This document shows, piece by piece, positions 3,493 through 60,699 of a stretch of DNA of 64,000 bases. Source of the DNA: Isurus oxyrinchus (Eukaryota). Every line of letters begins with the position of its first letter. Position 1 is the stretch's first letter. Location of the stretch: assembly GCA_026770705.1 (NCBI GenBank), contig JANJGN010000071.1, positions 2,232,001-2,296,000 on the forward strand, read 5' to 3'. The notes beneath the pieces were generated by a model. It ran no database searches. It was not told where the DNA came from and was given only the letters and a program-made list of their open reading frames with translations. A program made the position numbers and the translations under genes.

Positions 3493-3526
<34 letters not shown>

Positions 3527-16911: not shown

Positions 16912-17289
16912 TTGGATTGTCACAAGAGTGGAAAGGTGACACTCCACGAGAGGTGACAGCGCAGGAAGGTTCGTGTGTACAGATTCCATGTCATTACAGT
17001 TATCCATCAGATTTGGTAAAGAAACCACAGGTCGGAATCTGGAAAATGAGAAGATACATACAGAACAAATGGTCTAAATGGTCTATAGCCTTTCACTCCA
17101 AGGGTCACAGTCGCGAGTTATCACAGTTCCACCATCGGACCCGGCTGTCTGGAGACCTGAAAGATGGCGACTGTTCCCTGATTATAAACAACATCAGACG
17201 GGAAGATGCAGGACCTTATTTTTTCACGATAAAATTTGGCAATGGTCCGAGCCATAACGTTTCCCCTGAAACCCAGCTTCACGTTTCTG
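16912..17289 (+). CDS. Gene B V-set exon 1 (essential Arg replaced by Thr)
   Basis: 378 nt open, AG/GTAAGT, phase 1-1; ...PYFFTIKFGNGPSHNVSPETQL. Confidence 0.92.
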
Positions 17290-17519
17290 GTAAGTTCTGT
17301 GTTATAATTACTCACCAATTCACATCCAACACTCAATGGGAAATAATAGTGTTTGATTTGCTTGTTTTTTGGCTGTGTTAACCAGCGTCACTATTTTTAA
17401 TGATTTGTCTATTTCTGCTCCCAGATCCATGAGCTTATTGTGTGTGATTGAATCCACATTATAGCTGTAACGTAAACCGAGCTGAGGGGTGATGACACCT
17501 CCCCCCTGAGTGAAGTGTC

Positions 17520-20485: not shown

Positions 20486-20854
20486 CTGAACCCTCACAAG
20501 AGTGGAAAGGTGACACTCCACGAGAGGTGACAGCTCAGGAAGGATCGTGTGTACAGATTCCATGTCATTACAGTAATCCATCGTGTCTGGAAAACCAACC
20601 GCGAGGTGGAGTCTGGTTTAATAATGAGAAACAGATTCCCTGGGCTCCCATTGCCTTTCACTCCAAGGATCACAGTCACGAGTTACCACGGTTTCACCAT
20701 CGGACCCGGCTGTCTGGAGACCTGAAAGATGGCGACTGTTCCCTGATTATAAACAACATCAGACGGGAAAATGCAGGACCTTATTTTTTCAGAATAGAAT
20801 TTGACAATGGTCCGAGCCATAACTATTACCCTGTAACCCAGCTTCACGTTTCTG
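20486..20854 (+). CDS. Gene B V-set exon 2 (Arg retained)
   Basis: 369 nt open, AG/GTAAGT; ...PYFFRIEFDNGPSHNYYPV. Confidence 0.92.
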
Positions 20855-21665
20855 GTAAGTGCTGTGTTATAATTACTCACCAATTCACATTCAACACTCA
20901 ATGGGAAATAACACAAACTGTGACGTTTACATATTAACACAAAACACAGCTTATTATAAAAGACTGTCTGATTCTCAATAACCTGGTGATAGCTTCCAGT
21001 TCAGTCCTAAAACAACCTCTAATACTCACTTTAATATCAATGATTAAATGTATTGACTGTGTCCATCAATGTTATCAGGTTATCCACTTACATCAATCTC
21101 CCTAATCCTGTTTAAAATTCTTACATATCAACAAAAGAAAGATTTGCATTTCTATAGCGCCTTTCACCACCTCTGGACGTCGCAAATGGATTCACAACCA
21201 TTGAAATAATTCTTGAAATGTAGCCCTTGTTGTAATATAGGAAACACAGCAGCCAATATGTGCACAGGAAGCTCCCAGAAACAGCAATGTGATCAATAAC
21301 CTGTCATCTGCTTTAGATGCCGGTTCAGTGATTGGTTCAAATGGATTCTCTCCTGCTGGGAACTGGATAGAATTTAAATTGGCAGATTTCGGAGAAAGTA
21401 ACAAGCCAGTGTGTCAGGAACTGTGAGCTGCTCCCCCGCCCTCACCCGGGATTGTCAATTCAATTGTCTCAAAGTGGAAGTGAATTCATCTGAGTGACAG
21501 AAACTCCACTAAGTCTGAAAATAGGAAAGTCTCTCCTGATCGTTGTAACCTCTCAGTTCTGATATCATCCTTGTAAAAGTGCTTTTTCTTGTGGGACTGT
21601 GATTTCTATTTGAACTGATGCTTCACGTTATATTTCTCTAAAAGGATCCATTCTCTGTCTGTTAG

Positions 21666-21962
21666 ATTTCACAGATAAACCCACGATATTCCCTGCTGAA
21701 ATTATTGCAGGAAAGCGTGTGGATGTAAGCTGCACCTTCAACACAACGTGCAATGGAACAGCAGCACCTGTCTTAACCTGGGACACTCCCACTGACGTAC
21801 CTGGATCCGTTTCAAACACTGTAACTCAGCATGGTGTCACTCTGACCTATACTTCTGTTCTGACCCTGATCCCATCACTCAAACACCACGGACACAATCT
21901 CAGCTGCAGAGTTAGATATCCATCCGTTTCATCGGAGCGGACCCTCGTATTAACTGTACAAG
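21666..21962 (+). CDS. Gene B C2-set exon 1 (Siglec domain-2 type)
   Basis: 297 nt; DFTDKPTIFPAEIIAGKRVDVSCTFNTTCNGTAAPVLTW...LSCRV; carries the BC-loop Cys used for the Siglec V-C2 interdomain disulfide. Confidence 0.92.
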
Positions 21963-22329
21963 GTAAGTACTGAAACCCTTGATTCTATATTAGCTGTAAT
22001 AGGTTACAATGTGCAGAGCAAGATCCCACAAACATCACTGGGTTGAAGACAAAACAGGTCCTTTTTTATTAGTGATATTGACCAGGGAGAGCTCTTCCTG
22101 TATTGAGCCTTGGGATTGTTTGTGCCTACCTGATAGGGCAGAGGGGGCCAAGGTTGAACTTAAAAGACAATATAGGATAATATAAATATTGTCTTCATTG
22201 ATGTCAAAGATTTTGGGGGAGTTGTAGTATAAAAGTTTAATATTAGCAATGTAAATAGATAGTATTTATCATTAATTACTCAAGGTTACATGAGAATAGA
22301 ACACGGAGAGAGATAGTTCTATAGATACC

Positions 22330-24400
22330 TAGGTACATAGAAACTAGGAGCAGGATTAGGACATTCAGCCCTTCAAGCCTTCTCCGCCATTCAATATGAT
22401 CAAGGCTGACCCTCTATCTCAAAGCCTTATTCCTGCTTTCTCTCCGTACCCTTTGATGCCCCTAATATCAAAATATTTATCAGTTTCTTTCTTGAATACA
22501 CTCAGTGACCCGGCCTCCACAGCCTCTGTGATGGAGAATTCCACAGATTGACCACCCTCTGAGTGAAGAAATGTTTCCCTATCTCAGTCCAAAATGGCCT
22601 GCCCTGTATCCTGAGATTGTGGCCCTTGGTTTTAGACTCCCCAACCAAGGGATGCATCCTCCCTCCATCCAGTCTGTCTATCTCTGTTAGAATTTCTTAC
22701 GTTTATTCAGGTCTCCTATCATTCTTCTAAACTCTAGTGAATACAGACCCAGTCGTACCAATTCTCCTCATACGACAGTCCTGCCGCCCCTGGTATCAGC
22801 CTAGAGAACCTTCTCTGCGCTCTCTCGACGGCAAGTCTATCCTTTTTTAGGGAGGGAGACCAAAACGGCACGTAGTACCCCATGTGCAGTCTCACCAAGA
22901 CCTTGTATAACTGCAGTAAGACATCCCTACTCCTGAACACGAATCCTCTTGCAATGAAGGACAACATACCATTTGCCTTCCGAATTACTTGCTGCACCTG
23001 CCTGTTTACTTTCATTGGCTAGTGCACAAGGACACCCAGATCCCTTTATACATCCACATTTCCCATTATATCACCATTTAAATAATACTCTGCCTTTCTG
23101 TTTTTCACACCAAAGCCTACAATGTCACATTCATCCACATCATCTGCCATGTGTTTGCCCACACACACAACTTGTCTAAATCGCCTTGAAGCCTCTTTGC
23201 ATCCTCCTCACAGCTCACACCCTTACCCAGCGTTGTGTCATCAGAAAACCTGGAAATATTGCACTTGGCTCCTTCACCCAAGTCATTTAAATATATCGTG
23301 AATAGTTAGGTCCCAAGCACGGATCGCTGTGGTACACCACTAGTCACCGCCTGCCACTCAGATAAAGACTAATTTATTCTGACCCTCTGTTTCCTGTCTG
23401 TCGACCAATTCTCAATCCATGCCAGTAAATTACCCGCAATCCCATGGGCTTTAATGTTGCGCACTAGCCTCATGTAGGACCTTATCAAAAGCCTTCTTGA
23501 AGTCTAAATACACCACATCCACTGGTTATCCCTTATCTATTCTACTCGTTACATCTTCAAAATCTCCAATAGATTAGTTAACCATGATTTTCCTTTCATT
23601 AACCCATGCTGATTTTGTCGAATCCCATTAAAGCTTTCCAAGCATTCCATTAGCACACCTTATATAATAGGCTCTAGCGTTTTCCCCATGTTAGACTAAC
23701 TGATCTGTAATTCCCAGTTTTTTTCTCTCCCTTCTATTTTAAATAGTGGAGTTACAATTGCCACTCTCCAATCTATAGGAACTGCTCCAGAGCCTATAGA
23801 ATTTTGGAGGATGACCACCAGTGCTTCCAATATTTCCAGGGTCACTTCCGTTAGTCTCTGGGATGTAGATTTTCAGGCCCTGGGGACTGTTCAACCTTTA
23901 ACCCATTAATCTCTCCAGATTCATTTTTTAAAACTAATCCTGATTATCTTCAATTCCTCCCTCTCACTAGACACTTGGTTCCCTAACATTCCTGGGAAAT
24001 TATTTGTGTCCTCTTTTGTGAAGACAGAACCAAAATATATGTTCAGTTCTTCTGCCATTTCTTTGTTTCTCATTAGAATTTCCCCCATTTCTGACTGCAA
24101 GGAACCTACATCGGTCACTGCTAATCTTTCTCTCTTCACATATTTATAGAAGCTTTTACAGTCGGTTTTTACGTTCCCTGCAAGTTTACTCCCATGTTCC
24201 ATTTTCCCCTTCTTGATCAATCTTTTTGTCCACTTTTGCTGAATTCTAAACTGCTCCCAATCCTCAGCATTGCTGCTTCCCCTGGCAATTTTATGTCTCC
24301 TCTCTGGATCTAATACTATCCCTAATTTCTTTTGTAAGCCCTGGTTGAGCACCATTTCCTGACTTATTTTTACGCCAGACAGAAATGGATACTTGTTGTA
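22330..24400 (-). mobile_element. CR1 LINE ORF2 fragment
   Basis: KLAGNVKTDCKSFYKYVKR...MAEELNIYFGSVFTKED; KANGMLSFIARG...LYKVLVR. Confidence 0.88.
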
Positions 24401-24519
24401 GCAAATGCTTCAGCCTTATCTTTTGCCCTGATGTTCTGGGCTCCCCCTTCATTGAGGATGGGGATATTTGTGGATTCCCCTCCTCCAGTGAGTTAATTGT
24501 CCGTTACCATTGGATACGA

Positions 24520-25510
24520 GCATTAGTGGACTGTATTAGACCATTATCGAAAATGAAAGCCGGACTCCAGTATGGCCTCACTATGATGGATATGACAACT
24601 CGATTTCCAGAGACCATCCCTTTAGGAACAATTACAGCTAAAGTAGTAATAGGGAAGTTAACCCAATTTTTTACCCATTATGGATTACCGCTGGAGATCC
24701 AGTCAGATCAAGGTTCCATCTCTATGTCTTAAAATTTTCCGAACATAATGAGTAATTTGGGTATAAAACAGTTAAAGTCCGCAGCATATCATCCATAGAC
24801 ACAGGGCTCTTTAGAGAGGGACCAACAAACCCTCAAAACAATGATTGAAGCTATTGTCATGAACTCCCCATGACTGGGACAAAGGACTGGATTTTCTTGT
24901 ATTTCCCACACGAGATTCACCAACTGAATCGGCAGGTTTTAGTCTTTTTGGAATAACTTATGGACACGAGATAAGAGGCTGTCTGAAATACATCAAAGAA
25001 AGATATTCCGGACAGAGGGATGAATCCTCTATTTCAGATGATGTGTCCACGTTTCAGGAACGGCTCATGGGAGCCTCCAAAGCGGCACAAGAACATCTTA
25101 TAGTTTCTCAAACAGAAATGAAGGAATGGGGCAGACAGGCAAGCTGTGACCCGAACATCTCAACCAGGGGGATGACGTGTTAGTATCATTGCCTTGGCAG
25201 GGGGAGCCTCTGAAAGCACGGTTCAGTGGTCCCTACAAGGTAATTAGGAGGGTTGGTCAAGTAAATTATTTGATAGAAACCCCAGATTGTAGAATAAAGA
25301 ATCGGCTGTGACACATCAATATGTTAAAACGATACCATCGTATGGAGGGAGGTAAAAAGGAGCAGGTATTTCATTTCCAACCAGATTCTGCATACATTAC
25401 AGAAAGGTTAATGCAGCAATAAAACCAGATTCCTACCCAATCCCCTGTTTAGAAGATGGTATTGACGAGGTTGGCAGTGCCATGTTCCTTACTGAGATAA
25501 ATTTGTTGGT
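24520..25510 (+). mobile_element. Gypsy integrase + RT fragments
   Basis: VDCIRPLSK...MDMTTRFPETIPL...IQSDQGS; AYHP.TQG.LER; downstream YRKVNA..KPDSYPIP. Confidence 0.85.
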
Positions 25511-26428
25511 AGTGGGGGGTGTTCGTGACCATCAGTGTGGAAGGGTTAGGTTTACAGGTTACACAGACCAGACACACACCAACAGACACACACACACATG
25601 TAAGCACGCACATTCACACGCACATGCTCACACACACAACACACACACGCACACACACACGCACACACACACACACACACACACGTAAGCACGCACANNN
25701 NNNNNNNNNNNNNNNNNNNNNNNNNNNNNNNNNNNNNNNNNNNNNNNNNNNNNNNNNNNNNNNNNNNNNNNNNNNNNNNNNNNNNNNNNNNNNNNNNNNN
25801 NNNNNNNNNNNNNNNNNNNNNNNNNNNNNNNNNNNNNNNNNNNNNNNNNNNNNNNNNNNNNNNNNNNNNNNNNNNNNNNNNNNNNNNNNNNNNNNNNNNN
25901 NNNNNNNNNNNNNNNNNNNNNNNNNNNNNNNNNNNNNNNNNNNNNNNNNNNNNNNNNNNNNNNNNTGTGCAGAAACGCAAACACACACACACACACGTGT
26001 GAGTTCCCTCTCCTCGCTCAGGGCTGCACTGGAGTCTCGGTGTCAGCTCCAATTCTGTGCTGAAGGAAGGTAAACTCCAGATCAGCAAGACCCTGAATTG
26101 GATGAGCAACCTCCTGAACAGAGAATGGTAGATTTACCCCTCAGTGCTCCATCGATCAAATACAATTCATTGCCTGTCAAGCCCTTGGGGACATCCTGAG
26201 GATGTGAAAGGCAGTTTCTTTAAATCTGGATGGACAGGGTCTCTGGTGGGAGAATGCTCCTGCAGTGTGACAGTTTACATAGGCAGTGCCCATTGTAAAT
26301 GTGACATAGGAACTTATCTTGAGAGAAGGTGCCTAGAAATGCACACAGGCATCAGTTACAGCGAGATGATACAGGAAGTTTTGCTGTGCACTGTGTTTGC
26401 TCACATTAAAATCTTTATATATTTTTAG

Positions 26429-26710
26429 ATGGACCACAGAATCTCTCAATTAATTCTCTTGATATGATTAACGCTTCATCGGTCAATATAATTGAGGGGA
26501 ATTCTGCAGTGATAATCTGCTCTGTCGAGAGCTTCCCAGCTTCTAACCTGACGTGGCGACATCTTAATGTCCCAATGAACAGAACAAGTTCCAACAATGA
26601 GCTGTGGTTGGTGATTCCTCACGTTACATCCAGGGACACTGGAGACTATCAGTGTGTGGCAGAGAATGAACATGGAGCAGTGGAGGGATTCATAACCATC
26701 ACTGTGGAAT
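26429..26710 (+). CDS. Gene B C2-set exon 2
   Basis: 282 nt, TTTTAG/GTGAGT; DGPQNLS...EGNSAVIICSVESFPASNLTW...DTGDYQCVAENEHG. Confidence 0.92.
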
Positions 26711-26769
26711 GTGAGTGTGGAGATACATTTGTTTGTTTGTTGTCTCCGTGGTCTCCGTGGAGCCATTGG

Positions 26770-27040
26770 GATCGTGTTGTTTTTAATCCAGTTTTCTTCA
26801 ATCCTCGCTCAGTCCACGTTATCCACACACCCAATTTTTCCTCTCCCTTTCTGTTTTTGCTCTCAGTTTCTCCTTCAATGGTTGTGAGGACAAGGCTGTC
26901 AGGTCTTCGTTTCCAATCTCCGTACTTGATGAACTTTCTCTCTCTAACTGTCCTGAACAACCCTTTTAATTGCTGAACGTCTCCTCTTGATCTAAGCCAC
27001 TCATTGGTCTTTCTGTCCATCCAGCTGATTCTGAGCATCT
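26770..27040 (-). mobile_element. RTE-like LINE 3' fragment
   Basis: LRISWMDRKTNEWL...IEG motif. Confidence 0.6.
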
Positions 27041-28260
27041 GGCAGCATCTGTGGGGAGAAAGACAGGGTTAGCGTTTGGAGTCCGTAAGACTCCTCTTCA
27101 GAGCTAAAGGGAAGTAGACATGTGGTGAAATATATCCTGTCTAAGGGGGGGCGATGGGACAGGTGGAGCTGGATAGAAAACCAGCGATAGGTGGAGGCAA
27201 TGGAGAGATTGTGGAAGATGTCATAAACAAAAGGTCAAAGGGTTGTTAACAGTGGTGGTATTGGATAAAGGAGGTGCTCATGGTGACATTAAGCAGAGTG
27301 TGATAATGGGCGGACCAGGGTAAGCACTCTGGAAAGAGACAGATGGCCCTCGTGGGGGTGTGGAAGGGGGAGGGGACAGTGGAGGGAATAAAGATCGAAA
27401 ATAGACTAAAATCTGTGGATAAAACAATCAATAAAAATGGAAATGAATTTCAAATAATAATAATAAAAATAAGTGGAAAAAAATTAACAAGTAAAACAAT
27501 TAAAATGTATATATTAAAAAATCGGGTCAAAAAGCAGTGAAGATCGAGGAGAGAGTTCATGATCTGAAATTGTTGAACTCAATATTCAGTCCGGAAGGCT
27601 GTAAAGTGCCAGGTCGGAAGATGAGGTGCTGTTCCTCCAGTTTGCGTTGGGCTTCACTGGAACAATGCAGCAGGCCAAGGACGGACATGTGGGCATGAGA
27701 GCAGGGTGGGGTGTTAAAATGGCAAGCGACAGGGAGGTCTGGGTCGTTCTTGCAGACAGACTGAAGGTGTTCTGAAAAGTGGTCACCCAGTCTGTGTTTG
27801 GTGTCTCCAATGTAGAGGAGACCACATTGGGAGCAGCGAATGCAGTAGATTAAATTGAAGGAAGTCTGCATGAAGCGCTGCTTCACCTGGAAGGAGTGTT
27901 TGGGTCATTGGACAGTGAGGGGGGAGGAAGTAAAGGGGCAGGTGTTGCACCTTCTGCAAATGCATGGGAAGATGTCATCGGAGAGGGTTGAGGTGCTAGG
28001 GGTGATGGAGGAATGGACCAGGGTGACCTCGAGGGAATGATCCCTATGGAATGCCAACATGGGGGGGGGGGGTGGGGGGGGGGGCAGATGTGGTGAAGGG
28101 AAGATGTGTTTGGTGGTGGCATCATGCTGGAGTTGGCGGAAATGGCGGAGAATGATCCTTTGAATGAGGAGGCTGGTGGGGTGAAAAGTGAAGACAGGAG
28201 GGACCCTTACATTGCTCTGGGAGGGAGAGGAATTTGCAAGGGGGGATGCGCGGGAGATAC
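27040..28260 (-). mobile_element. Penelope-like element 3' part (GIY-YIG endonuclease)
   Basis: NLIYCIRCSQCGLLYIGDTKHRLGDHFSEH...PVACHFN...EQHLIFRPGTLQPSGLN. Confidence 0.88.
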
Positions 28261-28586
28261 ACAATCTCCAACTCTTTCTCAACCATTAAGATGCTCCTTA
28301 AAACCATTAAGACACACCGTTAAAACCTCCTGCTTTCAGCGAGCTTTTGCTCACCTCTCCTAATATCTCCTAATGTGACTCGGGGTCAGATTTTGTCCGA
28401 AGGAGGTGAGAAATGATGGAGGGAATTCCAGAGGTTAGGGTCCAGGCAGCTTAAGGCACGGCCGCCAATGGTGGAGAGATGGGAATGGGAGAATGTGCAA
28501 GGGGTCGGAATTGGAGGAGCACAGAGATTTCGGAGAGCTGTGGGGTGTGGGGATTACCTGCTGATTGTTCTCTGTCTTTGTTCCAG

Positions 28587-28862
28587 ATCCCCCACAGGAG
28601 ACGATGGTGTCCATCAGCAGATCCTCAGGTGGGATAAGAGAGGGAAGCAATATCACATTAACCTGCTCCAGTGAAAGTGTCCCACCGATATCTCATTACA
28701 CCTGGTTCAGGATCGAGGGGAACACCAGCACCCAGTTAAACACAAGTAGCCGCACTCTCTCCTTCACTCCTGTAACACGGGAGAATGATGCAGGTTTCTA
28801 CTGCACAGCGAGGAACCCAATGGGTAACAGCACCTCCAACATCACCCACCTGAACGTACAAT
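28587..28862 (+). CDS. Gene B C2-set exon 3
   Basis: 276 nt, TTCCAG/GTAAGC; YPPQETMVSI...EGSNITLTCSSESVPPISHYTWF...DAGFYCTARNPMG (CD22/sialoadhesin-type repeat). Confidence 0.92.
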
Positions 28863-28989
28863 GTAAGCATTTTACTCCCCCTGTCTCTGCTTAAAACTCA
28901 AACACTTTCTGTCTGAGGGCAGCTTCCTTGCTGTTGTTTAGCATAACTAGCATCACCTCCCTGCTTTTTTCACCCTGCGCCTCTCCGAG

Positions 28990-29825
28990 ATACATAAGGA
29001 GATATCAGAACAGGGACTGAAAGCTCAGAGAAAGAGGCCAGATTTTAAGGAGTGTCTGAAATGAGGAGAGAGATAGACATGGAGAGGTTTACGGTGGGAA
29101 TTCTAGAGCTCGGGGCCCAGGCAGCTGAAGGCACGGCCGCCAATGGTGGAGCGATAGGAATCGGGGGATGGTCAAGAGGCCGGAATTGGAGGAACGCAGA
29201 GACCTCGGAGGGATGTAGATGCTGGAGGAGGTTACAGAGATAGGGAGGGTTGTGGGGTCTGGAGGAGGTTACAGAGATAGGGAGGGTTGTGATGGCTGGA
29301 GGAGGTAACAGAGATAGGGAGGGTTATAGGGGCTGGAGGAGGTAACAGAGATAGGGAGGGTTGTGATGGCTGGAGGAGGTAACAGAGATAGGGAGGGTTA
29401 TAGGGGCTGGAGGAGGTAACAGAGATAGGGAGGGTTGTAGATGCTGGAGGAGGTAACAGAGATAGGGAGGGTTGTGGGGTCTGGAGGAGGTTACAGAGAT
29501 AGGGAGGGTTGAAGGGGCTGGAGGAGGTTACAGAGATAGGGAGGGTTGTAGATGCTGGAGGAGGTAACAGAGATAGGGAGGGAGTAAGGAGGAATTTGAA
29601 ACGATGTAAATTTTAAAATTGTGGCATTGTCGGACCGGGAGCCAGTGTAGCTCAGTGACCAACAGGGAGTGATGTGTGAACGGGACTCGGTGTGAGTTAG
29701 GACATGGGGACAGCAGAGTTTGGGATGAGCTGATGTTTCCGGAGAGTGGAAGATGGGAGGTCAGGCAGGAGAGTGTTGGGATAGTCGAGTGCGGAGGTAA
29801 CAAAGGCAGGAATGAGTGTTTCAGT
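28990..29825 (-). mobile_element. L2 LINE 3' fragment with 37-bp minisatellite (29215-29585)
   Basis: Reverse complement of the 3060-3480 type sequence. Confidence 0.75.
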
Positions 29826-29892
29826 GTTAAGATTCTATCTTACGCTCTAACTTTGCTATGACGTTGTCTCATTGTTGTCCTTCCCTCCTCAG

Positions 29893-30186
29893 ATAAGCCG
29901 GAGATTTCCCAGCAGTCGGAGTGCACTCGGAGGTCAGAGGGGGTCACCTGCGTCTGTGTGGCCAACTCCAACCCACCCGGAGACCTCACCTGGCACCTGC
30001 CCAGTGCCAACATCAGTGGTAACCAAAAAAACGGAGGTTTTGTGTCGTGGCAGGTCAGAGATGGGCATCTGGTGACTGGTTCCCTCACCCTGATGAGACC
30101 CCAGGATGAGGGGGGAGTGATGGCATCCTGCTCGGTTCAAAACCCACACGGGGAAGCCATGTTCAAGATGTATCTGTGGGTCAAAG
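29893..30186 (+). CDS. Gene B membrane-proximal C2-set exon 4
   Basis: 294 nt; YKPEISQQSECTRRSEGVTCVCVANSNPPGDLTW...SCSVQNPHG; C-x8-CxC pattern of MAG domain 5 and the last domain of Siglec-5/10/11. Confidence 0.9.
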
Positions 30187-31070
30187 GTGAGAGACTCGCT
30201 CAGGATCGATCTCCACTCAGCTGGATTGATCCCTAAACTCGAGAATTCCCTCCCTCAACCTCTCCACCTCTCTCTCTACCTCCTCTAAGATGCTGTGTAC
30301 AACTGACCCCTTTGACCAAGCTTTGAATCGCCTGACCTCATGTGACAATGGCAACACTTGGTCAAATTGGAGCCAGGCCGTTCAGGGGGTGATGTCAGGA
30401 AGCACTTCTTCACACAAAGGGGAGTGGAAATCTGGAACCCTCTCCCCCAGATAAGCTGCTTCATTGGGTGCAAGACAGAAAGCTTTGACAAAATGTCCTT
30501 TCTCAGCAATACTCAGGTTCTCCTCCCAAACGATAAAATATTATATATAAACATTACATAGATTACATCGAGAAACATTTTATATAAATGTTACATAGAT
30601 TACATTGATAAATATTATATATAAATGTTACATAGATTACGTTGAGAAACGCAACAGCTGATTTGTGCAGAGCAAGATCCCACAAACAACAGTGTGAGGA
30701 TGAGGTGATAAATGATTATTTTAGTGATGTTAGTTGATACATATATATAGAAATTAAAGATATAATTACACATTTAGTGAGGGAAACCTGTCCATTTTAA
30801 CAGGTCTGGGTGTATATGTGACTCCAGTCTCAGACACCATCATGGTTAACTCTTACCTGCCCTCTGAACTGCTCTCCCAGTTTGGGACCAACCAGTGGTT
30901 CAGGAGGAAGACCCCCCACCACCTTCTCAAGGGGAAACTAGGGATGGACAATAAATGTCAGCATTGCCCGAGAATGAGTATTTAAACACTGAGTGAGTGT
31001 ATCGCTTCTCGAGATACATCGGAGCATCATTGTAAACCTGTAGTGCAGTAATTAATGGCTGTTTTTACAG

Positions 31071-31167
31071 GTAGAGACTCCAGTAAATGGACAGTAGGAT
31101 TGTTCACGGCTGGGATCATGTTGAGTGTTTTCCTGGCTGGAATCTTCATCTTCATCTGTGTGAGAAA
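31071..31167 (+). CDS. Gene B transmembrane exon (uncharged)
   Basis: TTACAG/GTAAGT, 97 nt, phase 1-2; GRDSSKWTVGLFTAGIMLSVFLAGIFIFICVRK. Confidence 0.9.
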
Positions 31168-31890
31168 GTAAGTCTGAAGATTTAACTTGATTTTAATATA
31201 AACATTTGTTTAGGATTAATTGGACAGTTTTTACAAAGGGCCAGCACAGGCACGATGGGCTGAGTGGCTTCCTCCCGAGCTGTGAGATTTTAAATTCTTT
31301 CATCGAATGTGACTGTCACTGGCGTGGCCAATACTAATTGCCCATTCCCTAAATGCCCCTTGAGAATGAGGTGGTGAGCTGCCTTCTTGACCCGCTGCAG
31401 TCCATGTGGTGTAGGTACACCCACAGTGCTGTTAGAGAGGGAGCTCCAGGATTTTGACCCAGCGACAGTGAAGGAACGGTGATATATTTCCAAGTCAGGA
31501 TGGTGAGTGACTTGGAGGGGAACTTCCAGGTGGTGGTGTTCCCATGTGTCTGCTGCCCTTGTCCTTCTAGATGGTAGAGGTCGTGGGTTTGGAAGGTGCT
31601 GTTGAAGGAGCCTTGCTGAGTTGCTGCAGTGCATCTTGTATATGTTACACACACTGCTGCCACTGTGTGTTCGTTGTGGAGGGAGTGAATGTTTAATGTG
31701 GTGGATGGGGTGTAGATCAATCGAGCTGCTTTGTCCTGGATGGTGTCGAGATTCTAGATTCTGTGCTTTGTGCAGAAGTGATTTAAAGAGACAGTCCAGT
31801 CATTGGTGTAAGGTTACAGTGGGCTCTGTGTCTGTGCTGCACTGACTCTTTGCTATGTGATAACCACAGTGTGATATTGTGTTATTGCAG

Positions 31891-31972
31891 GAGAAAGACA
31901 GCGATGGAGGAGAGAGTTTCAGGGACCAGTGACATTGCATTGACCCCCAGTTCACTCTCTGTGAAGCACCAG
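31891..31972 (+). CDS. Gene B cytoplasmic exon 1a
   Basis: TTGCAG/GTACAG, 82 nt, phase 2-0; RKTAMEERVSGTSDIALTPSSLSVKHQ. Confidence 0.85.
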
Positions 31973-33024
31973 GTACAGGAGCTGTTTACACTCACTCCAA
32001 AGCTTCAATCTCAGTGTGTAGACAACACATGTCCCAGATTCCCTGCCCAGTTACCCACTGATTTGTACCTGTGGAGTCAGCAATGGTTCAGTATCATGCT
32101 GTCTCTCTGTTATGACACAGCAACTGGTAAAGGCTGTTGTTTAAAAACCCAGAGGGAAACTTTAAACAACTGTCATAACCTATACTTCCCAGTGGAATGT
32201 TTGAGATGCATCTCTAAATTCAGGAATAAGACCACCAGTTCTGGAGATGGGTTTATATCAAACTAAATGAGACATATATTAATTTACACAAGTTAAACAT
32301 ATGCACATGGTTACAAACTAGTATTATCATAACTTTTTAACAAATTCTCAAACTAATCTCCTCTAAGACAACCCATAGTCTTTAAGCAGATTCCAGGCAT
32401 TTTCACCTCACAAGTTCCAGTTTCTCTCTCTATCTCAACCTCCCTTTCTTTCTCTCTCTTTCTCTCTCTCTCATCCTCTCTCTGATTACAAGGTGCATGT
32501 TAATGAGCTTCACACCAGAAACTTGAGTGAAGAATCCAAGCCGTCACTCACCAGAGCCATTACCGAGGGAGTGCGAGACTGACAGCGGGTCAGTACTGAG
32601 GGAGTGCTGTACTGTTGGAGGGTCAGTACTGAGGGAGAGTTGCACCGTCGGAGGGTCAGTACTGAGGAAGCGCTGTACTGTCGGAGGGTCAGTACTGAGG
32701 GAGCGCTGCACCATCGGAGGGTCAGTACTGAGGGAGCGCTGCACTGTCAGAGGGTCAGTACTGAGGTTTTTGCTGCGCTGTCGGAGGGTCAGTACTGAGG
32801 GAGTGCGAGACTGACAGAGGGTCACTATTGAGGATGTGCTGCACTGTTGGAGGGTCAGTCCTGAGGGAGCACTGCACTGCCATAGGTGGTTTCTTTCATA
32901 AGACATGGGAGAGAGAGTTAAACCCACTGAGACACGACTGACATTAACGAAGCTGCACAATAATTTAACCCTATCAGTGCCAGTAAATGATGTGAGGATG
33001 TCTTCTGTTTCCATTTCTCTGTAG

Positions 33025-33273
33025 GGTAAACAGAACGTGCTGATTACTGAGCCCCGGAACACAACCAGAGACACAACTAGCGAGGGGGAGACCCCAACTC
33101 CCCGGGGTCTCTCTGAAGGTGCAGTGGGAGGCGATGCTGGACTTGGGAACCCCGGCAAACCTGAAGAGTTTCTCTACGCCAATCCCCAAGTTTTGAGGGT
33201 GTCCAGTGGTGATGGGTCTGTCCACAGGGAAGAGGAGACGGAATACGCACAGATCAGGTTTGAGCATAACTGA
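33025..33273 (+). CDS. Gene B terminal cytoplasmic exon 2a (degenerate ITIM FLYANP + ITSM TEYAQI)
   Basis: CTGTAG acceptor, 249 nt to TGA; AATAAA at 33798-33803. Confidence 0.85.
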   Translation, partial: GKQNVLITEPRNTTRDTTSEGETPTPRGLSEGAVGGDAGLGNPGKPEEFLYANPQVLRVSSGDGSVHREEETEYAQIRFEHN

Positions 33274-34420
33274 ATGAGAAATGGGGACTGGGAGTGAGGA
33301 GGAGTGGGCGTGGGGGTAGGGATTGAGATTCCTGGGAACAGGAAACAACCCACTGGGGGAGAGGGGGAGAGAGGGAGGAAGGGATGGAATTGGGCTACGG
33401 TTGGTGTGGTTTGGAATGAAATGCTTCTCCAGAGAGGACTGGATGCTGAGCCATTGGGGAGTGAGATTCACTGTCTCTCTCTCTCTCTCTCTCTTCCTCT
33501 CTGTCTCTCTCTTTCTTTCTGTGTCAGTCTCTCATTCTCTCTCTCTTGCTCCTCCTTTAAGATGACCGTTAATGACTGACTTTGATGACTCAGCTGTTGG
33601 TCTCCTGTCCCTAATATCTCCTCATGTGCCTCAGAGTCAGGTGAAATGTGACTAACAATCCCCGGATGAGCCTTGGGACATTTTGCTACATTGAAGGTGC
33701 TATATAAATGCAAGTTGTTGCAGTAACTCTGATCTGCTTCTATTAACAATGGAACCACAGAGGTTCCTTCGACAGGGCGTGTGTGCAGCAGGGTCACAAT
33801 AAATACATTGAGCTGTGAGATTTTTCATTCTTACATCGAATGTGGCTGTCACTGGTGATGTCCGCATTGATGCCAATCTCTAACTGCCCTTGAGAAGGTG
33901 GTGGTGAGCTGCCTTCTTGACCCGCTACAGTGCATGTGGTGTAGGTACACCCACAGTGCTGTTAGAGAGGGAATTCCTGGATTTTGACCCAGCGACAGTG
34001 AAGGAACGGTGATATATTTCCAAGTCAGGATGGTGAGTGACTTGGAGGGGAACTTCCAGGTGGTGGTGTTCCCATGTGTCTGCTGTCCTTGTCCTTCTAG
34101 ATGGTAGAGGTCGCGTATTTGGAAGGTGCTGTTGAAGGAGCCTTGCTGAGTTGCTGCAGTGCATCTTGTAGATGGTACACACACTGCTGCCACTGTGTGT
34201 TCATGGTGGAGGGAGTGAATGTTTAATGTGGTGGATGTGGTATGGATCAATCGGGCTGCTTTGTCCTGGATGGTGTCGAGCGTCTTGATTCTGTGCTTTG
34301 TGCAGAGGTGATTTAAAGAGAGAGTCCAGTCATTGGTGTAAGGTTACAGTGGGCTCTGTGTCTGTGCTGCACTGACTCTCTGCTATATGATAACCACAGT
34401 GTGATATTTTGTGATTGCAG

Positions 34421-34502
34421 GAGAAAGACAGCGATGGAGGAGAGAGTTTCAGGGACCAGTGACATTGCATTGACCCCCAGTCCACTCCCTGTGAAACACC
34501 AG
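34421..34502 (+). CDS. Duplicated cytoplasmic exon 1b
   Basis: Near-identical to 31891-31972 with the same phases; RKTAMEERVSGTSDIALTPSPLPVKHQ. Confidence 0.8.
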
Positions 34503-35991
34503 GTACAGGAGCTGTTTACACTCACTCCAAAGCTTCAATCTCAGTGTGTAGACATCATATGTCCCAGATTCCCAGCCCAGTTACCCACTGATTTGTACCT
34601 GTGGAGTCAGCAATGGTTCAGTATCATGCTGTCTCTCTGTTATGACACAGCAACTGGTAAAGGCTGTTGTTTAAAATCCCAGAGGGAAACTTTAAACAAC
34701 TGTCGTAACCTATATTTCCCAGTGAAATGTTTGAGATGCAGCTCTAAATTCAGGAATAAGACCACCAGTTCTCAAGATGATTTTATATCAATCTAAATGA
34801 GACATTTATTAATTTTCACAAGTTAAACATATGCACATGGCTACAAACTAGTATTATCATAACTTTATAACAAATTTTCAAACTTATCTCCTCCAAGACA
34901 ACCCATAGACTTTAAGCAGACACCAGGCAAAGCATTTTCACCTCACAAATTCCAAATGAGGCTCCTTTCACTTTGGTTCCTTTGCAGACAAGTGTAGGAT
35001 TACAGCTGCTTTGCTGTTACAAGCCTCTGCTCTGCACACACAAAACTGCACAAGTTATACCCAGCTCTTGAGTGTGAAGAAGATGGAGATTGATGGGCTC
35101 TTGATTGGTAAAGGGATCAATGGTTAGGAGAGAAGGTGGGAGAATGGGGTTTGTGAAACATATCAGCCATGTATGAATGGTGGAGCAGACTCGATGGACC
35201 GAATGGTCTAATTTCTCCTCCTATGTCTTATGGTCTTATGGCTTCTGTTTGAAGGTAAATTCGCAATGTATCATCAGGACCTTTGAACTCCATCTCTTCC
35301 AATCCCCTTTCATCGTATCAATTTTATTAGTAATATAAACGTTGATTGGTTTAAGATTTCAATCTCAGACTTTGAATGTTTTATTTAAAAATACAAATTA
35401 CCACTTTACCTCTTTGTTTACATCTCAAAACTACTATACATCAAAGCACACAGACTGGCTGTCTTTAATCCAATTTAAATACACACAGACACACACACAG
35501 ACTAAACCTCTGTTTAAAAAGACAGTTTGCATTTATAATACAAACATTAATAGATTAATAACACTCTGTCTCTATCCCTCCTCTATCTCTCTCTCTCATC
35601 CTCTCTCTGATTACAAGGTTCATGTTATTGATCCTCACACCAGGCACCTGAGTGCAGAATCCAAGCCGTCACTCACCAGAGCCATTACCGGGGGAGTGGG
35701 GGACTGACAGCGGGTCAGTACTGAAGGAGTGCTGCACTGTCGGAGGGTCAGTACTGAGGGAGTGCTGCACTGACAGAGGGTCAGTACTGAGGGAGCGCTG
35801 TATTGTCGGAGGGTCAGCACTGAGGGAGTGCTGCACTGTTGGAGGGTCAGTACTGAGGGAGTGCTGCACTGCCATAGGTGGTGCCTTTTATCCGATAGGA
35901 GAGAGAGAATTAAACAAGTCTGCACAATAATTTAACCCTATCAGTACCAGTAAATGATGTGAGGATGTCTTCTGTTTCCATTTCTCTGTAG

Positions 35992-36240
35992 GATGAACAG
36001 AACGTGCTGATTACTGAGCCCCGGAACACAACCAGAGACACAACTAGTGAGGGGGAGACCCCAGCTCCCCGGGATCTCTCTGAAGGTCCAGTGGGAGGCG
36101 ATGTTGGACATGGGAACTCAGACAAACCTCACGAGCTTCTCTACGCCAACATCAACTTTTCAAAGCTGCCCGGCGGTGACAGGACTGTGCACAGGAGCGA
36201 GGACACGGAATACGCACAGATCAGGTTCCAGAAAAACTGA
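35992..36240 (+). CDS. Duplicated terminal cytoplasmic exon 2b (ITIM LLYANI + ITSM TEYAQI)
   Basis: CTGTAG acceptor, 249 nt to TGA; ITIM/ITSM pair as in CD33-related Siglec tails. Confidence 0.85.
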   Translation, partial: DEQNVLITEPRNTTRDTTSEGETPAPRDLSEGPVGGDVGHGNSDKPHELLYANINFSKLPGGDRTVHRSEDTEYAQIRFQKN

Positions 36241-53587: not shown

Positions 53588-53800
53588 TTGCGTCAATATG
53601 AACACATATTTGCACAAGGTGAAGGGCGTTGCGGAGGGACTGATAGTTCTCGGCGCCAGACAGTCAATGTCCCAGTGACCTTACTGCTGGTCCCAGGCCA
53701 GTGGGACAGGGAACATCGACACTGCAATATCCAGAAATGGGTGTGATACCACACAGCTACCCACCCGCGGCTGTCCCCTTCAAGTGTTTCAGGTATAAGA
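53588..53800 (+). promoter_or_regulatory. HAMP: Hepcidin proximal promoter
   Basis: TTGCGTCA (53588, C/EBP-ATF/CRE-like); TTGCACAA (53610, C/EBP); TCGGCGCCAGAC (GGCGCC BMP/SMAD element 53652-53657 plus AGAC); degenerate STAT-like ATCCAGAAA ~53729; TATAAGA 53794-53800. Confidence 0.7.
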
Positions 53801-53870
53801 GCAGGAAGCTCCTCTAGTTACAAACCAAAGCATCAAAGCAGAGCCAGAAGATCAGAAGAGACAGGCAGAG

Positions 53871-53963
53871 ATGGGAAGCTCCCAGATGAAATGGCGACTT
53901 GTCTTGTTCACTCTGACTTTGCTGCTCTCCCTGCAGCTGAGTCACTTCTTCTCCTTGTCGAGG
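53871..53963 (+). CDS. HAMP: Hepcidin exon 1 (signal peptide)
   Basis: MGSSQMKWRLVLFTLTLLLSLQLSHFFSLSR|GTAAGC; 93 nt, phase 0; resembles the mammalian MALSSQIW...LLL leader. Confidence 0.85.
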
Positions 53964-54159
53964 GTAAGCTAAGAGATGTCCCTCTGGGTGAGGTGTTTCT
54001 TGCACATGACTCTACGTCTACCACCCAGATAGACTGGTCACTTCCGCAGTTTGATATTATTATGTTGGTGCGTTTAATATTGTCGCCCTCTATGAATTTA
54101 ACATCATTTCCTTCTGTCGTTTCCCCTGAAATTCTCATTCTTGTTTTCAATCCCTCCTC

Positions 54160-55060
54160 AGCGACTCCCTATCTCTGTAACCTCCTCCAGCCCGTACAAC
54201 CCTCCCTATCTCTGTAACCTCCTCCAGCCCCTACACCCCTCCCTATCTCTGTAACCTCCTCCAGCCGCTACAACCCTCCCTATATCTGTAACCTCCTCCA
54301 GCCCCTACAACAATCCCTATCTCTGTAACTTCCTCCAGCCCCTACAACTGTCCCTATCTCCGTAACCTCCTCCAGCCCCTACAACTGTCCCTATCTCCGT
54401 AACCTCCTCCAGCCCCTACAACCCTCCCTATCTCTGTAACCTCCTCCAGCCCCTATAAACCTCCCTATCTCTGTAACCTCCTCCAGCCCCTACAACCCTA
54501 CCTATCTCTGTAACCTCCCCCAGGCCCCACAACCCTCATGATCACTGTAACCTCCTCTAGACCCTACAACCCTCCCTATCTCTGTAACCTGCTCCAGACC
54601 CTACAACCCTCCCTATCTCTGTAACCTCCTCCAGACCCTACAACCCTCCCTATCTCTGTAACCTCCTCCAGGCCCCACGACCCTCAGAATCACTGTAACC
54701 TCCTCCAGCCCCTACAATGCTCATGAACTCTATAACGTCCTCTCCACACTATAACTCTCTCTATCTCTGTAACCTACTGTGGCCCCTACAACAGTATCTA
54801 TTTTGGTAACCTCCTCCAGCCTCGACAACCCTCCCTACCTCTGTAACCTCCTCCAGCCCCCACAACCCCCCCATCTCTTTAACCTCCTACAGCCCCTACT
54901 CACCTCCCTATCTCTGTAACCTCCTACAGCACCTACAACCTTCCCTATCTCTGTCACCTCCTACAGCCTCTAGAACCCTCCCTATCTCTGTTACCTCCTA
55001 CAGCCTCTACAACCCTCCCTATCTCTGTAACCTCCTCCAGCCGGAACAACCCTACCTAAA
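54160..55060 (+). repeat. 37-bp minisatellite in hepcidin intron 1
   Basis: CTCCCTATCTCTGTAACCTCCTCCAGCCCCTACAACC, about two dozen copies. Confidence 0.92.
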
Positions 55061-55114
55061 TCTCTGGTCTGAGTCTCACTCCAGGGAATTCAGTCCCATA
55101 ACGTCGGTCAACAC

Positions 55115-55710
55115 TCCGTGCTGAGGGAGTGCTGGACTGTCAGAGGGTCAGTAGTGTGGAAGTGTTGCACTATTGGAGGGACAGTACTGAGTGAGTGCTA
55201 TACTGTCGGAGGTCAGTACTGAGGAAGTGCTGCATTGTTACAGGGTCAGTACTGTGGAAGTGTTGCACTGTCGGAGGGTCAGTACTGAGGGAGCGCTGCA
55301 CTGACGGAGGGACAATACTGTGGGAGTGCAGCACTATCGAAGGGTTAGTACTGAGGGAGTGCTGCAGTGTCAAAGGATTAGTACTGAGGGAGCACAACAA
55401 TGTTGAATGAGACATTAAACTGAGTCCCCCGTCTGCCCTCTCGGGCGGGTGTGAAAGATCCCACAGCCACTATTTGGAGGAAGAGCAGGGGGGAGATCTC
55501 CCCGGTGTCCTGGGACCAATATTTATCCCTCACCCAACATCACCAAAAACAGATGATCTAGGCCATGATCACATTGCTATTTGTGGGATCTTGCTGTGCA
55601 CAAATCAGCTGCCACATTTCCTAAAGTGTGAGTGCACTTCAAAAACATCCTTCAGTGGCTGTGAAATGCTTTGGGATGTGGTGAAAGGCGTTAGAGAAAT
55701 GCAAGTCTGT
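55115..55710 (+). mobile_element. Deu-domain SINE (SacSINE1/AmnSINE1-like) with amplified 33-bp unit; second copy ~57395-58000
   Basis: GAGACATTAAACTGAG..GTCTGCCCTCTC..AAAGATCCCA..CCTGGGACCAATATTTATCCCTCA..TTTGTGGGATCTTGCTGTGC; recognised from memory of the Deu core. Confidence 0.7.
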
Positions 55711-55807
55711 CCTCCTCCCCCTCTCTCTCCTGTACCTCTCTCTCTCTCTCTCCCTCTCCCTCAATCCTCCTCTCACTTTCTCCCTGATAAATTCTTTCTT
55801 TTTGCAG

Positions 55808-55864
55808 GTTGACACTGCTTTAGGTTCTTCGACGATTGAGAAATCTGTGGATTCCCCGGACACG
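55808..55864 (+). CDS. HAMP: Hepcidin exon 2 (pro-region)
   Basis: Long polypyrimidine tract + TTGCAG, donor ACG|GTAGGT; 57 nt, phase 0-0; VDTALGSSTIEKSVDSPDT. Confidence 0.78.
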
Positions 55865-58091
55865 GTAGGTGGAAATTCATTCCTTATTTTAAGGTTTCTC
55901 CCTGCTCGTTTCTTCCACAGAAAGTTTTCTGATTTCAAGCTGATTTCAGTGGCAGTCTGTCTCGGTTATACTCAGGAGGCATGTTTGAAATCGAGCCCCC
56001 CCCAACTTTTTTTGCAAAGCTGGGAAGAGACAATTCCAAGGAAGTGAACATATCCCCACAGGAATTTTAAATGTAACCCACGCCGGGAATAGTGAGAGGG
56101 AGACTGATCCAGCCTGGGAGTGGGTTAAAGAGAGGCTGGGAGTCGAGAGTCGGAGAGAGGGATGGAATGGGGGAGGGAGGGATTGGAAGAGAGAGACAGA
56201 GAGTGGGATGGGGAGGGGTGAAAGGGAAAGAACATAGGTGGGAGAGAGTGACAGAGGGAGAAATTAAAGAAGAGATGCAGAGTGAGGGAAAGTGAAAAGG
56301 GAAGAGAGATTGTCCAAGAGAGAGAAATTAACAGGGAAGGGAGAGTTACAGAGTGAGCGAAAGGTACAAAAATAGTGTGAGAGGGAGAGATACAGAGTGG
56401 GAGAAGGAGACAGGGGAGAGAGAGGGAGAGAGACAGGAAAAGGGAGAGAGGAGAGAAAGATTGGGAGAGAGGGCAATTGAGAGGAAGAGTAGGAGAGAGA
56501 GAGACAGGGAGAGGAGGAGTGGATGAGAGGAAGAGAGAGAGAGATATGGAGCAGGAGAACACCTCCTCCGGTCCCGATGTTCCTCCAAAATCTCTGACAT
56601 TACTGCATCTCCCGGGTCCCCCTGATTCCCATCGCTCCACCATTGGTGGCCGTGCCTTCAGCTGCCTGGGTCCCTGAGCTCCGGAATACCCTCCCTTAAC
56701 CTCTCTGCCTCTCTCTCTCTCTCTCCTTTAAGACGCTCCTTAAAAACTGACATCTTTGACCAAGCTTTTGGTCACCTAACCCTAATATCTCCATATGTGA
56801 CTCAGTGTTAGACTTCTCTCTGATTTACGCTCCGGTAATGTGGGCTGGGACATTTTGCAATGTCAGAGGCGCTGTGTAAATGCAAGTTGTGAGTGTTATG
56901 TGGAAGGGCGACCCCAGGCGGCAGTCAGTGCCAGTGACTGGAGTCATTGTGCGCAGACCATATCTAATCTCTCCGAATGCACAATCGGTTTGACTGTCAG
57001 CCAAAGCACTTTTGATATTTGATCCTTCTAACTGTTTATAACCAGGCCTACATCATACACCGAGAGGCTGGTTAATCAACAGACACCTTAGAGGATCAAG
57101 TGAAAGACAAAGAGGACTTGCATTTCTCTAGCGCCTTCCAACACATCAGGACGTCCCAAACTGTTTCGCAGACAATCAAGTGCTTTTTTTCTTTCATGTG
57201 AGGTCACTGATGTACTGTGGGAAAAGAATCAGCCATTGGCGCACAGTAAGATCCCACAGACAGCAGCATGATAATGACCAGCGCACTCCCAGTACTTGCA
57301 CTGCAAGTGTCAGTTCAGGGTGTCTGCTCGATTCTCTGCAACTCTCAGCTCTGAGTTAAAAGGACCACCAGGCGTAATTGAGAAATTACCGAGCTGTCGG
57401 AGGGTCAGTACCGGCGGGGGGGCAGGACTTTCGGAGGGTCAGTACTGAGGGGGTGCTGCATTGTCAGACGGTCAGTCTTGGAGTGCTGCATTGTCAGAGG
57501 GTCAGTACCGGCGGGGGACTGCACAGTCGGAGGGTCAGTACTGAGGGGGTGCTGCATTGTCAGACGGTCAGTACTGAGGGAGTGCTGCACAGTCGGAGGG
57601 TCAGTACTGAGGGGGTGCTGCACTGTTGAAGGCGCTGTCTTTCAGATGAGATGTTAAACTGAGACAACATCTGCCCTCTCAGATGGATGTAGAGGATTCC
57701 ATGGCCACAATTTAAATGAAGTGCGTCAGGAGTTGGGGGTATGTGTGGAGGGGGTGGTGGGGGGTGGATGGGATGCAGTTATGTCTGCTTTCCTGGGGCA
57801 AACATTTATCCCTCAACTGACATTGGTAAAAACCTGAAAATCGGGGCCATTATCACATTTCTGTTTGTGGGATCTTGCTGTGCGTGAATTGCCTGCTGCG
57901 TTTCCTACATTACAGCGGTGAGCTCACTTCAGAAAAAGTCCTTCCTTCAGCTGTGGAACACTTTGGGCCATCCTGAGGAGGGGAAAGGCGCTATAGAAAT
58001 GTGCCATCCTCCTTCCAATGACGCGCCTGATTGAAATGATGCCTTCTTTCTTTCCGGAATGTTCTCACCTATTGTCCTCCTGCTTTTCCAG

Positions 58092-58208
58092 GGCTCCTTG
58101 CTGCAGCGCCAGAAGAGAATGGGCAGACAGCAGCTCTGCAGATTCTGCTGTAACTGCTGTAATTGGAGAGAACCAAATGAGACTTGTGGTCTCTGCTGTA
58201 GATATTAG
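58092..58208 (+). CDS. HAMP: Hepcidin exon 3 (furin site + mature 8-Cys peptide)
   Basis: TTTTCCAG acceptor; GSLLQRQKR|MGRQQLCRFCCNCCNWREPNETCGLCCRY*; C-x2-CC-x-CC...CG-x-CC hepcidin signature. Confidence 0.93.
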   Translation, partial: GSLLQRQKRMGRQQLCRFCCNCCNWREPNETCGLCCRY

Positions 58209-58710: not shown

Positions 58711-60699
58711 ACTGTGTCAGTGTGTGTCAATGTGAATGAGTGAGTGTGTCAGTGTGTCTGTGTGGGTGTGTGTGACTGTGTCAGTGTGTGTCAATGTGAA
58801 TGAGTGAGTGTGTCAGTGTGTCTGTGTGGGTGTGGGTGTGTGAGTGTGCAAGTGAATGTGTGAGGAATCTTATGACTAAGTCATTTGAATGGATGTTACT
58901 GGGGTTAATGATAGTTAAAATTCAGAGTGATGTAAAGCGGGCTCCTGATTTTGCTGCTTTATGCTCCCGGGCACAGATTGACCCCGACAATGTGTTCATG
59001 ATTCACCATCATCTTGTCGGGACTTTAATTGTAAAGATTATGATTTGTGAAAAAAAATGAATAAACAACTTGTGTCTTCACAAAGTGTCTGGCTTGGTAT
59101 TTCAGGCTACTTGTCTCTCCCTCACCCTCCCCCCCCACCATGCCCCCCACACCAGGGAACAATTGTCCCCCCTTCCTCTGAAGTTCTGGGTAAAGATCAG
59201 CTTTGTTCAATGCAAGCTGTTCCGACATCGAGAACGTTGTTACAAATATCTCACAAAGGGCACACGCCATGATAGCCCACTTTCAACAGATTTTACCAGT
59301 TGACCAGGTTGAAAACCTTTTCATAAACCACAACGTAGGTGTTCAATTCTTGCTGCTGTTTGCTTAATGTTCTCATAACTGCTATAACCTCTCTAGTTCC
59401 ACTACATAACAACACCAACATAAATAAACAGAAGCAGGAGTAGGCCTTTTGGCCTCCCAAGCCAGCTTGTCCATTCAATTTGAACCTGGCTCCTGCTGAA
59501 AGTTATTTAAGTTGAAGCGATAAAGCCATCAGGTGCAGGGATTAAAATGTAAGCAAAGGAAAAATAATACTTAGACATGAGATTTAAAATCAGTTTCTGT
59601 GAAGAATCATACTGAGGCCATTGCACTGGATTCCTTCTTTCCAGAGTGAAGGGTTTAAAACTAGGAGTCACATTCAGCAGCTGCGTTGTCTTCTCTAGTT
59701 GACTATTTGGAGGTTGCCTGTAGATGTGAATCAGCAGGTCAGCAGCTTTGGGGAGTGAGTGAAGGTCCCTTTTATTTACAGGATCTGCCACAGGATGTGC
59801 AGGAATATTCCTGCTGAATTCTCCATCCTTGCATTCATGAAGGGTTTGAAACTGGAAGTCATATTCAGCAGCTGCAATGGCCTCTGTAGCCAACTGTCTG
59901 GAGGTTGCCTGTACAGGTGGACTCAGCAGGTCAACAGCTTTGTAGGGCCGGGGGGTGCACGGGTAGTAAAGGTCCCTTTACTTTAAAGGCTCTGCCAGTG
60001 CAACACTTGATGATCCTGGGTCAAAATCATGTATCACCCTCCCCAACAGCACTGTGGATGTGCCCTATGGAGGTTCCTTGGCTTCGACAAGCAGCCTACC
60101 AGCTCTACTCTCAATTCCTCTTCGCACTTGCTTCCTTCCTCCTCTGGTCTTTACTTTGTTATAGTGTTAGTGTCCGCTCTGCCTTTTTTGTTGCTTTCCC
60201 AATTCTTCCCACCAACTCTCTCTGGCTTGATCCTTCTCTGTGCTCATCTCATTGGTTTGGGTTTCTATCCGTTCATTGACCTGGTGTCATCTGAAACTGG
60301 TGCAATCAGGTAGGGGTGGGGGGGTTGGCGCTGGCCGTGGGTGGTGATACACGGCTACCTTTTTACCAAAATTCTTTCACGGGATGTGGACAGCGTTTGT
60401 TACCTGTTCCTGACTGAGCCCTTGAGAAGGGGGTGCTGAGCTGCCTTTTCGAAGTGCTGCAGTTCGCCTGGTTTGACTGGTCTGTGGCGGGTTTTGATAT
60501 AACTCAGTGGCTTGCTCGGCCATTTCAGGGGCCAGTTAAGAGTCAACCACATTGCTGTGGGTCAGGAGTCACACGTAGGCCAGAATGGGTAAGGACGGCA
60601 GGTTTCCTTCCCCAAAGGGCATTAGTGACCCAGATGGGTTTTTGCAACAATTGGCCTTAGTTTCATGGTCACCATTACTGAGACTAGCTTCGCATTCCA

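Follow-up and report, generated by a model that had tools for sequence, protein, structure and literature searches.

A 64,000-nucleotide stretch of the genome of the shark Isurus oxyrinchus (assembly GCA_026770705.1, contig JANJGN010000071.1, positions 2,232,001 to 2,296,000 of the forward strand), hereafter the 64-kb window, was analysed around a candidate hepcidin (HAMP) gene at 53871..58208, and the results altogether left very little doubt that this is a real shark hepcidin gene. Judging from its sequence, the gene is probably functional. The candidate coding sequence comprised 93 + 57 + 117 = 267 nt, an open frame throughout that encoded 88 residues followed by a single terminal stop, with introns bounded by GT and AG and every exon junction in phase 0. 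The three coding exons were placed as follows:

53871..53963, forward strand: coding exon 1 (31 codons), with the putative signal peptide and the start of the pro-region; donor ranked 1 of 239
55808..55864, forward strand: coding exon 2 (19 codons), pro-region; acceptor ranked 1 of 317 and donor 2 of 239
58092..58208, forward strand: coding exon 3 (38 codons and the stop), with the end of the pro-region, the convertase site and the mature peptide; acceptor ranked 2 of 317

Exon 3, which encodes all 8 cysteines of the prepropeptide, matched the Pfam Hepcidin family (PF06446) at 31.6 bits against a cut-off of 27 (E 2e-7; 30.7 bits on rescan), and its sole match in the PDB was the hepcidin 1s6w (E 0.26). 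Over all six frames, the window contained the strict hepcidin cysteine pattern once, and 60 fifth-order Markov copies contained it 0 times (the loose pattern, two times). An Rfam scan returned 0 matches. When ranked with an approximate splice matrix, the two donors of the model came first and second among 239 GT sites and the two acceptors likewise among 317 AG sites; exon 2, rich in serine, threonine and aspartate, was the best of 333 frame-keeping candidates (score 13.4, against 4.9 for the runner-up). Exons 1 and 2 were supported by these splice signals and by their size; exon 1 gave no homology match when scanned, and exon 2 was too short for such a scan. The introns measured 1844 and 2227 nt, of which 86% and 55%, respectively, were repeat-masked, compared with 0% of the exons.

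An earlier note on this DNA had claimed a three-exon hepcidin gene with an RQKR site and an 8-cysteine peptide, absent from the list of open reading frames (ORFs), and had proposed a check against the Pfam profile and a search for further copies. The gene was borne out by the 88-residue frame, the phase-0 GT/AG junctions, the splice ranks and the cysteine pattern; the RQKR site and the cysteines were both present, at residues 56-59 and in exon 3; the profile check succeeded with the score given above; and no HAMP copy, nor any second hepcidin-like cysteine pattern, was found in the 64-kb window besides this gene. It is also true that the gene is missing from the ORF list, which has a floor of 80 residues, although this was to be expected, because small spliced genes generally escape such lists.

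The prepropeptide begins with a hydrophobic, signal-peptide-like stretch in exon 1 (11-residue hydropathy peak of 2.5 at residue 10), for which the (-3,-1) rule gave candidate cleavage after residue 20 or 30. The elements encoded by exon 3 were the following:

58107..58118, forward strand: RQKR furin-type site, residues 56-59, directly preceding the mature peptide
58116..58127, forward strand: second, minimal R-x-x-R site, residues 59-62, overlapping the RQKR site
58119..58205, forward strand: predicted 29-residue mature peptide, with cysteines at 7, 10, 11, 13, 14, 23, 26 and 27, a net charge of +2 and a mass of about 3.5 kDa
58161..58184, forward strand: loop between Cys5 and Cys6, extended to 8 residues and terminating in an N-x-T sequon (58176-58184)

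Six residues lie ahead of Cys1 (the arm) and two behind Cys8 (the tail), and the gaps between cysteines were 2, 0, 1, 0, 8, 2 and 0, in which only the loop departs from the published spacing. Its 8 residues compare with 4-5 in 10 of the 10 published peptides considered, a small set with no other shark: human (PMC9779829), five croaker (PMC6240063), two sea bass (PMC5665920), grass carp (PMC7356000) and 1s6w. The Pfam alignment of exon 3 set 33 query residues over 29 profile positions. Sequons near a C-terminus are frequently skipped by glycosylation, so N-glycosylation of the loop is doubtful. A single-sequence AlphaFold model, obtained with no alignment as guide, was helical with a predicted template modelling score (pTM) of 0.38 and was not used.

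As to function, we lean, with modest confidence, towards a ferroportin-regulating, single-copy hepcidin with a dual role, in which some antimicrobial activity would accompany iron control. Family knowledge suggests that the gene would be transcribed mainly in liver from a TATA promoter that receives BMP/SMAD signals through GGCGCC, and that, upon signal peptide removal and furin cleavage after RQKR, a 29-residue peptide with four disulphides would be secreted. This peptide would block and down-regulate ferroportin, lowering plasma iron, and its cationic antimicrobial activity would be modest alongside the iron role. HAMP has been described with three exons, the mature peptide in exon 3, an R-X-K/R-R site and 8 cysteines (PMC3325200). 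In human hepcidin, ferroportin is contacted by residues 1-6 and by the C-terminal carboxylate (PMC9882908), and the lengths of the shark arm (six) and tail (two) equal those of human hepcidin (PMC9779829); the four extra loop residues would probably sit at the hairpin turn, distant from the ferroportin-contacting ends. The presence of one HAMP copy in the window was also counted in favour of an iron hormone, HAMP2 genes being found in tandem arrays (PMC9073008), as were a candidate BMP element and the circulation of hepcidin in nurse shark plasma (PMC9207270).

Candidate regulatory signals were located on both sides of the coding exons; for the promoter motifs, the background was 5000 dinucleotide-shuffled versions of the 400 upstream nt:

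53588..53617, forward strand: two weak C/EBP-like sites (53588 and 53610) in the putative promoter; 8.6% of shuffles, not significant
53652..53657, forward strand: GGCGCC followed by AGAC, one of 2 copies in the window; 4.6% of shuffles, suggestive only
53794..53800, forward strand: TATA-like box, 77 nt 5' of the ATG; 4.5% of shuffles
59060..59065, forward strand: first AATAAA past the stop and a candidate poly(A) signal, with GT-rich sequence after it

The sites at 53588..53617 were called with a C/EBP consensus. GGCGCC is the motif of both BMP-responsive elements of human hepcidin, the proximal one being placed at -84/-79 beside a STAT site at -72/-64 (PMC3879105). The ten-mer formed by GGCGCC and AGAC appeared in only 1 of 5000 shuffles, and this rarity was not counted because the ten-mer was picked after being noticed.

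Several observations weigh against an iron hormone. First, the arm carries Arg3 and Gln4, and lacks the His3 and hydrophobic residue 4 present in 4 of 4 iron-type peptides (human, PMC9779829; croaker, PMC6240063; sea bass, PMC5665920; grass carp Hamp1, PMC7356000); the arm, atypical here, is required for ferroportin internalisation (PMC7356000). Second, sea bass Hamp2, with an arm of six residues, does not regulate ferroportin (PMC5665920). Third, no TTC-N3-GAA STAT site was found within 53000-53900, and the promoter motifs are borderline, suggestive only. Finally, further hepcidin copies may lie outside the 64-kb window.

The alternative that survives best, and which we hold as a tentative second choice, is that of an expressed hepcidin that is mainly antimicrobial or acute-phase, convergent on teleost HAMP2, with iron control weak or exerted by another copy. 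An arm without His3 would fit such a peptide, as would a Cys1-Cys5 core identical to that of bass HAMP2-type peptides and the placement of the gene within an immune cluster showing recent duplications; moreover, cleavage at the second R-x-x-R site could yield a 26-mer whose arm is shortened to three residues. However, a single copy was found in the window, a candidate BMP element is present, and the charge is just +2, whereas bacterial killing by croaker peptides required several arginines (PMC6240063); HAMP2 proper is, in addition, reported only from acanthopterygians (PMC3325200). Rather doubtful is a distinct shark hepcidin type, the sole shark hepcidin and still ferroportin-controlling, which would combine an 8-residue loop, maybe N-glycosylated, with a His-free arm and a second convertase site. 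If this were true, the His3 arm regarded as the mark of iron regulation would be a trait of bony vertebrates, cleavage at the second site might turn the hormone into an antimicrobial peptide, and HAMP and the Siglecs would have been neighbours since the gnathostome ancestor.

It is improbable that the gene is a paralogue in decay or a pseudogene of recent origin, with an odd loop and arm resulting from relaxed selection. The adjacent Siglec copies are indeed broken, and no close annotated relative was found despite the RefSeq proteins of two lamniform sharks in the database, but the frame, the 8 cysteines, the convertase site, the four top-ranking splice sites and the TATA and poly(A) candidates are all intact. 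Least probable of all is a real gene in which exon 1 or 2 was mis-chosen or which an assembly error put next to the intact Siglec, for although exons 1 and 2 had no homology match and three N gaps (40648-42639) separate that Siglec from hepcidin, exon 2 leads the next candidate by 8.5 score units, the exon sizes of 93 and 57 are close to the teleost 87 and 78 (PMC3325200), and a Siglec fragment at 47.0-48.2 kb lies on the same gap-free stretch as hepcidin.

The shark HAMP gene is a new member of a known family and has probably gone unannotated in its lineage. Word-based searches with exon 3 and 2 or 19 upstream in-frame codons gave no candidate in the collections searched; teleost peptides sharing the core were also missed, so these searches are uncalibrated. 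A phmmer search against 1.84 billion representatives returned one match, a 577-residue protein with 34% identity in six stretches. In simulations with the cysteines fixed, 157 of 160 relatives at 60-90% identity and 29 of 40 at 50% passed, and these rates make the otherwise blank phmmer result moderately informative: there is probably no close shark orthologue, or else it is concealed by the representative of its cluster. The top score in the ESM Atlas (0.76) was uninformative. In the literature searched, which excludes most subscription journals, neither a chondrichthyan hepcidin gene nor its synteny was the subject of any study found, and the plasma protein was mentioned only briefly.

The gene model matters chiefly for offering a short, synthesisable peptide from the sister group of bony vertebrates, with which it could be tested which of two functions, iron regulation or bacterial killing, came first and whether His3 is required. 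Its two oddities, the loop and the arm, would allow a cheap test of the age of the hepcidin-ferroportin axis. The shark synteny, in turn, extends the known mammalian neighbourhood and overturns nothing.

In the shark, the neighbourhood consists of a partly duplicated Siglec array on the forward strand, in which one copy at 1.4-7.1 kb looks broken and one gene at 16.9-36.2 kb looks intact, followed by the fragment nearest to hepcidin:

16860..36240, forward strand: intact-looking Siglec gene, with 2 V and 4 C2 domains, a transmembrane segment and duplicated cytoplasmic exons with tyrosine motifs
47023..48190, forward strand: Siglec-like leader exon (47023-47068) and V-set exon (47889-48190) with a premature stop; nearest neighbour of hepcidin

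The fragment is 5.7 kb from the hepcidin ATG on gap-free sequence, whereas 17.6 kb and the three runs of N lie between hepcidin and the intact gene. Since a Siglec array adjoins shark HAMP, an old linkage between the two appears likely, as far as one window can tell. In mammals, HAMP and USF2 share one locus with FFAR genes and MAG close by, and human USF2, HAMP and MAG are near FFAR2 (PMC4453067). The earlier note had proposed looking for USF2, MAG and CD22 around the shark gene, and this look-up yielded no orthologue in the window, which ends 5.8 kb past HAMP and in which short or masked exons could escape; for USF2, this covers 17.6 kb upstream and 5.8 kb downstream of HAMP. Among 182 unmasked open frames of at least 35 codons in 36.3-64 kb, none contained a helix-loop-helix (HLH) domain, and hepcidin alone passed the Pfam cut-off, with the V exon narrowly below it.

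The Siglec V domain scored 54.0 bits on Siglec-5, 53.1 on MAG, 52.0 on CD33 and 41.5 on sialoadhesin, with CD22 absent from the 28 matches; the fragment scored highest on sialoadhesin (44.4, against 40.6 on MAG). Related shark Siglecs were found on more than one contig in several species. The human order is USF2-HAMP-MAG-CD22, with MAG and CD22 3' of HAMP, whereas the shark Siglecs are 5' of it; a 2009 paper in Immunogenetics reportedly argued for a common ancestral region for all Siglecs. Thus, of the synteny inference in the earlier note, the adjoining Siglec genes and the likely old linkage are supported, but an origin of these Siglecs at the MAG/CD22 locus is not, since the V domain scores alike on MAG and on CD33-related Siglecs and the array flanks HAMP on the other side from MAG and CD22 in human.

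The assignment of the array to the Siglec family was drawn from its V-set, C2, transmembrane and tyrosine-motif features, from the essential arginine kept in 3 of 4 complete V exons, and from top PDB matches that were Siglecs. A search with the V-set exon at 20.5 kb yielded 114 proteins, of which all 113 that carried names were from sharks, rays or skates, and the sialic-acid-binding arginine was present in 154 of 167 aligned shark domains. Two Siglec domains of the window shared 97% identity with Carcharodon proteins and 92% with Cetorhinus proteins, compared with 82% for other species, which places the host among the lamniform sharks. In the tandem V-V pair (16890-17378 and 20464-20934), the first V has threonine in place of this arginine and the second keeps it. 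The cytoplasmic exons were tandem-duplicated (31871-33273 and 34356-36240, 93% over 1.1 kb); both last exons terminate in T-x-Y-x-x-I, and only the second retains a proximal motif of the immunoreceptor tyrosine-based inhibitory (ITIM) type, which suggests alternative tails differing in inhibitory strength. Fish are said to lack inhibitory CD33-related Siglecs (PMC7226832). A recent segmental duplication was also observed between 3-6658 and 15457-21994 (92-96% identity), and the upstream copy, whose first C2 exon is frameshifted near 6470 and for which no transmembrane exon was found, may represent either a pseudogene or a duplicate created by the assembly.

The V domain of the fragment shared 68% identity with the first domain of a 1522-residue Heptranchias 'sialoadhesin-like' protein, whose domain lacks the arginine, and about 35% with the other V domains in the window. 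No continuation of the fragment into further Ig exons was found; within 47023-49400 it breaks off into what, by its motifs, resembles a decayed gag/protease of Gypsy type, with no Pfam match.

Dispersed minisatellites of two families, presumably parts of shark mobile repeats, were found throughout the window and in both hepcidin introns: a 37-bp family at 3119-3360, 18567-19517, 29207-29582, 51281-51493 and 54165-55058, and a 33-bp family at 9704-10785, 32561-32879, 35712-35871, 44959-45278, 55121-55392 and 57394-57626. A 43-bp tandem array (49547-50051) extends a 319-codon open frame (49168-50127) that showed a weak coiled-coil signal and matched no family. Remnants of long interspersed nuclear element (LINE) reverse transcriptases were located at 37336-37977 and 61339-61716 (Pfam RVT_1, 40.1 and 24.1 bits), and the 5.8 kb downstream of hepcidin contained microsatellite and LINE remnants.

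Compared with vertebrate HAMP/HAMP1, the shark gene shares the three exons, a predicted signal, the pro-region, the R-X-K/R-R site, the C-x2-CC-x-CC...C-x2-CC spacing, a six-residue arm with a hydrophobic last residue, a two-residue tail and GGCGCC in the proximal promoter. It differs in a loop of 8 residues (with N-x-T) instead of 4-5, in a peptide of 29 instead of 25-26 residues, in the lack of His3, of a hydrophobic residue 4 and of a canonical STAT site, none having been found, and in introns of about 2 kb, against 0.1-0.2 kb in teleosts (PMC3325200). With teleost HAMP2 (1s6w, sea bass Hamp2 and croaker Hamp2s) it has in common the missing His3, a loop longer than that of human hepcidin and, for the 1s6w peptide, an identical Cys1-Cys5 core. 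However, HAMP2 genes are acanthopterygian paralogues that form tandem arrays (PMC3325200, PMC9073008), whereas one copy was found in these 64 kb; the shark loop has 8 residues against 5, and its peptide carries a charge below that of the potent croaker forms (PMC6240063). The likeness to the mammalian USF2-HAMP-MAG-CD22-FFAR block resides in a HAMP gene beside same-strand Siglec-family genes, which in the shark are expanded Siglecs and a broken sialoadhesin-like fragment, with no recognisable MAG or CD22. Finally, hepcidin was detected in nurse shark plasma, with no orthologue among whale shark predicted proteins (PMC9207270), and that plasma hepcidin is probably the orthologue of the gene described here, being likewise without counterpart in the protein set of a shark genome. 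Hepcidin was therefore already known in sharks, yet is easily missed, as the earlier note held and as the lack of a close relative in protein collections also illustrates.

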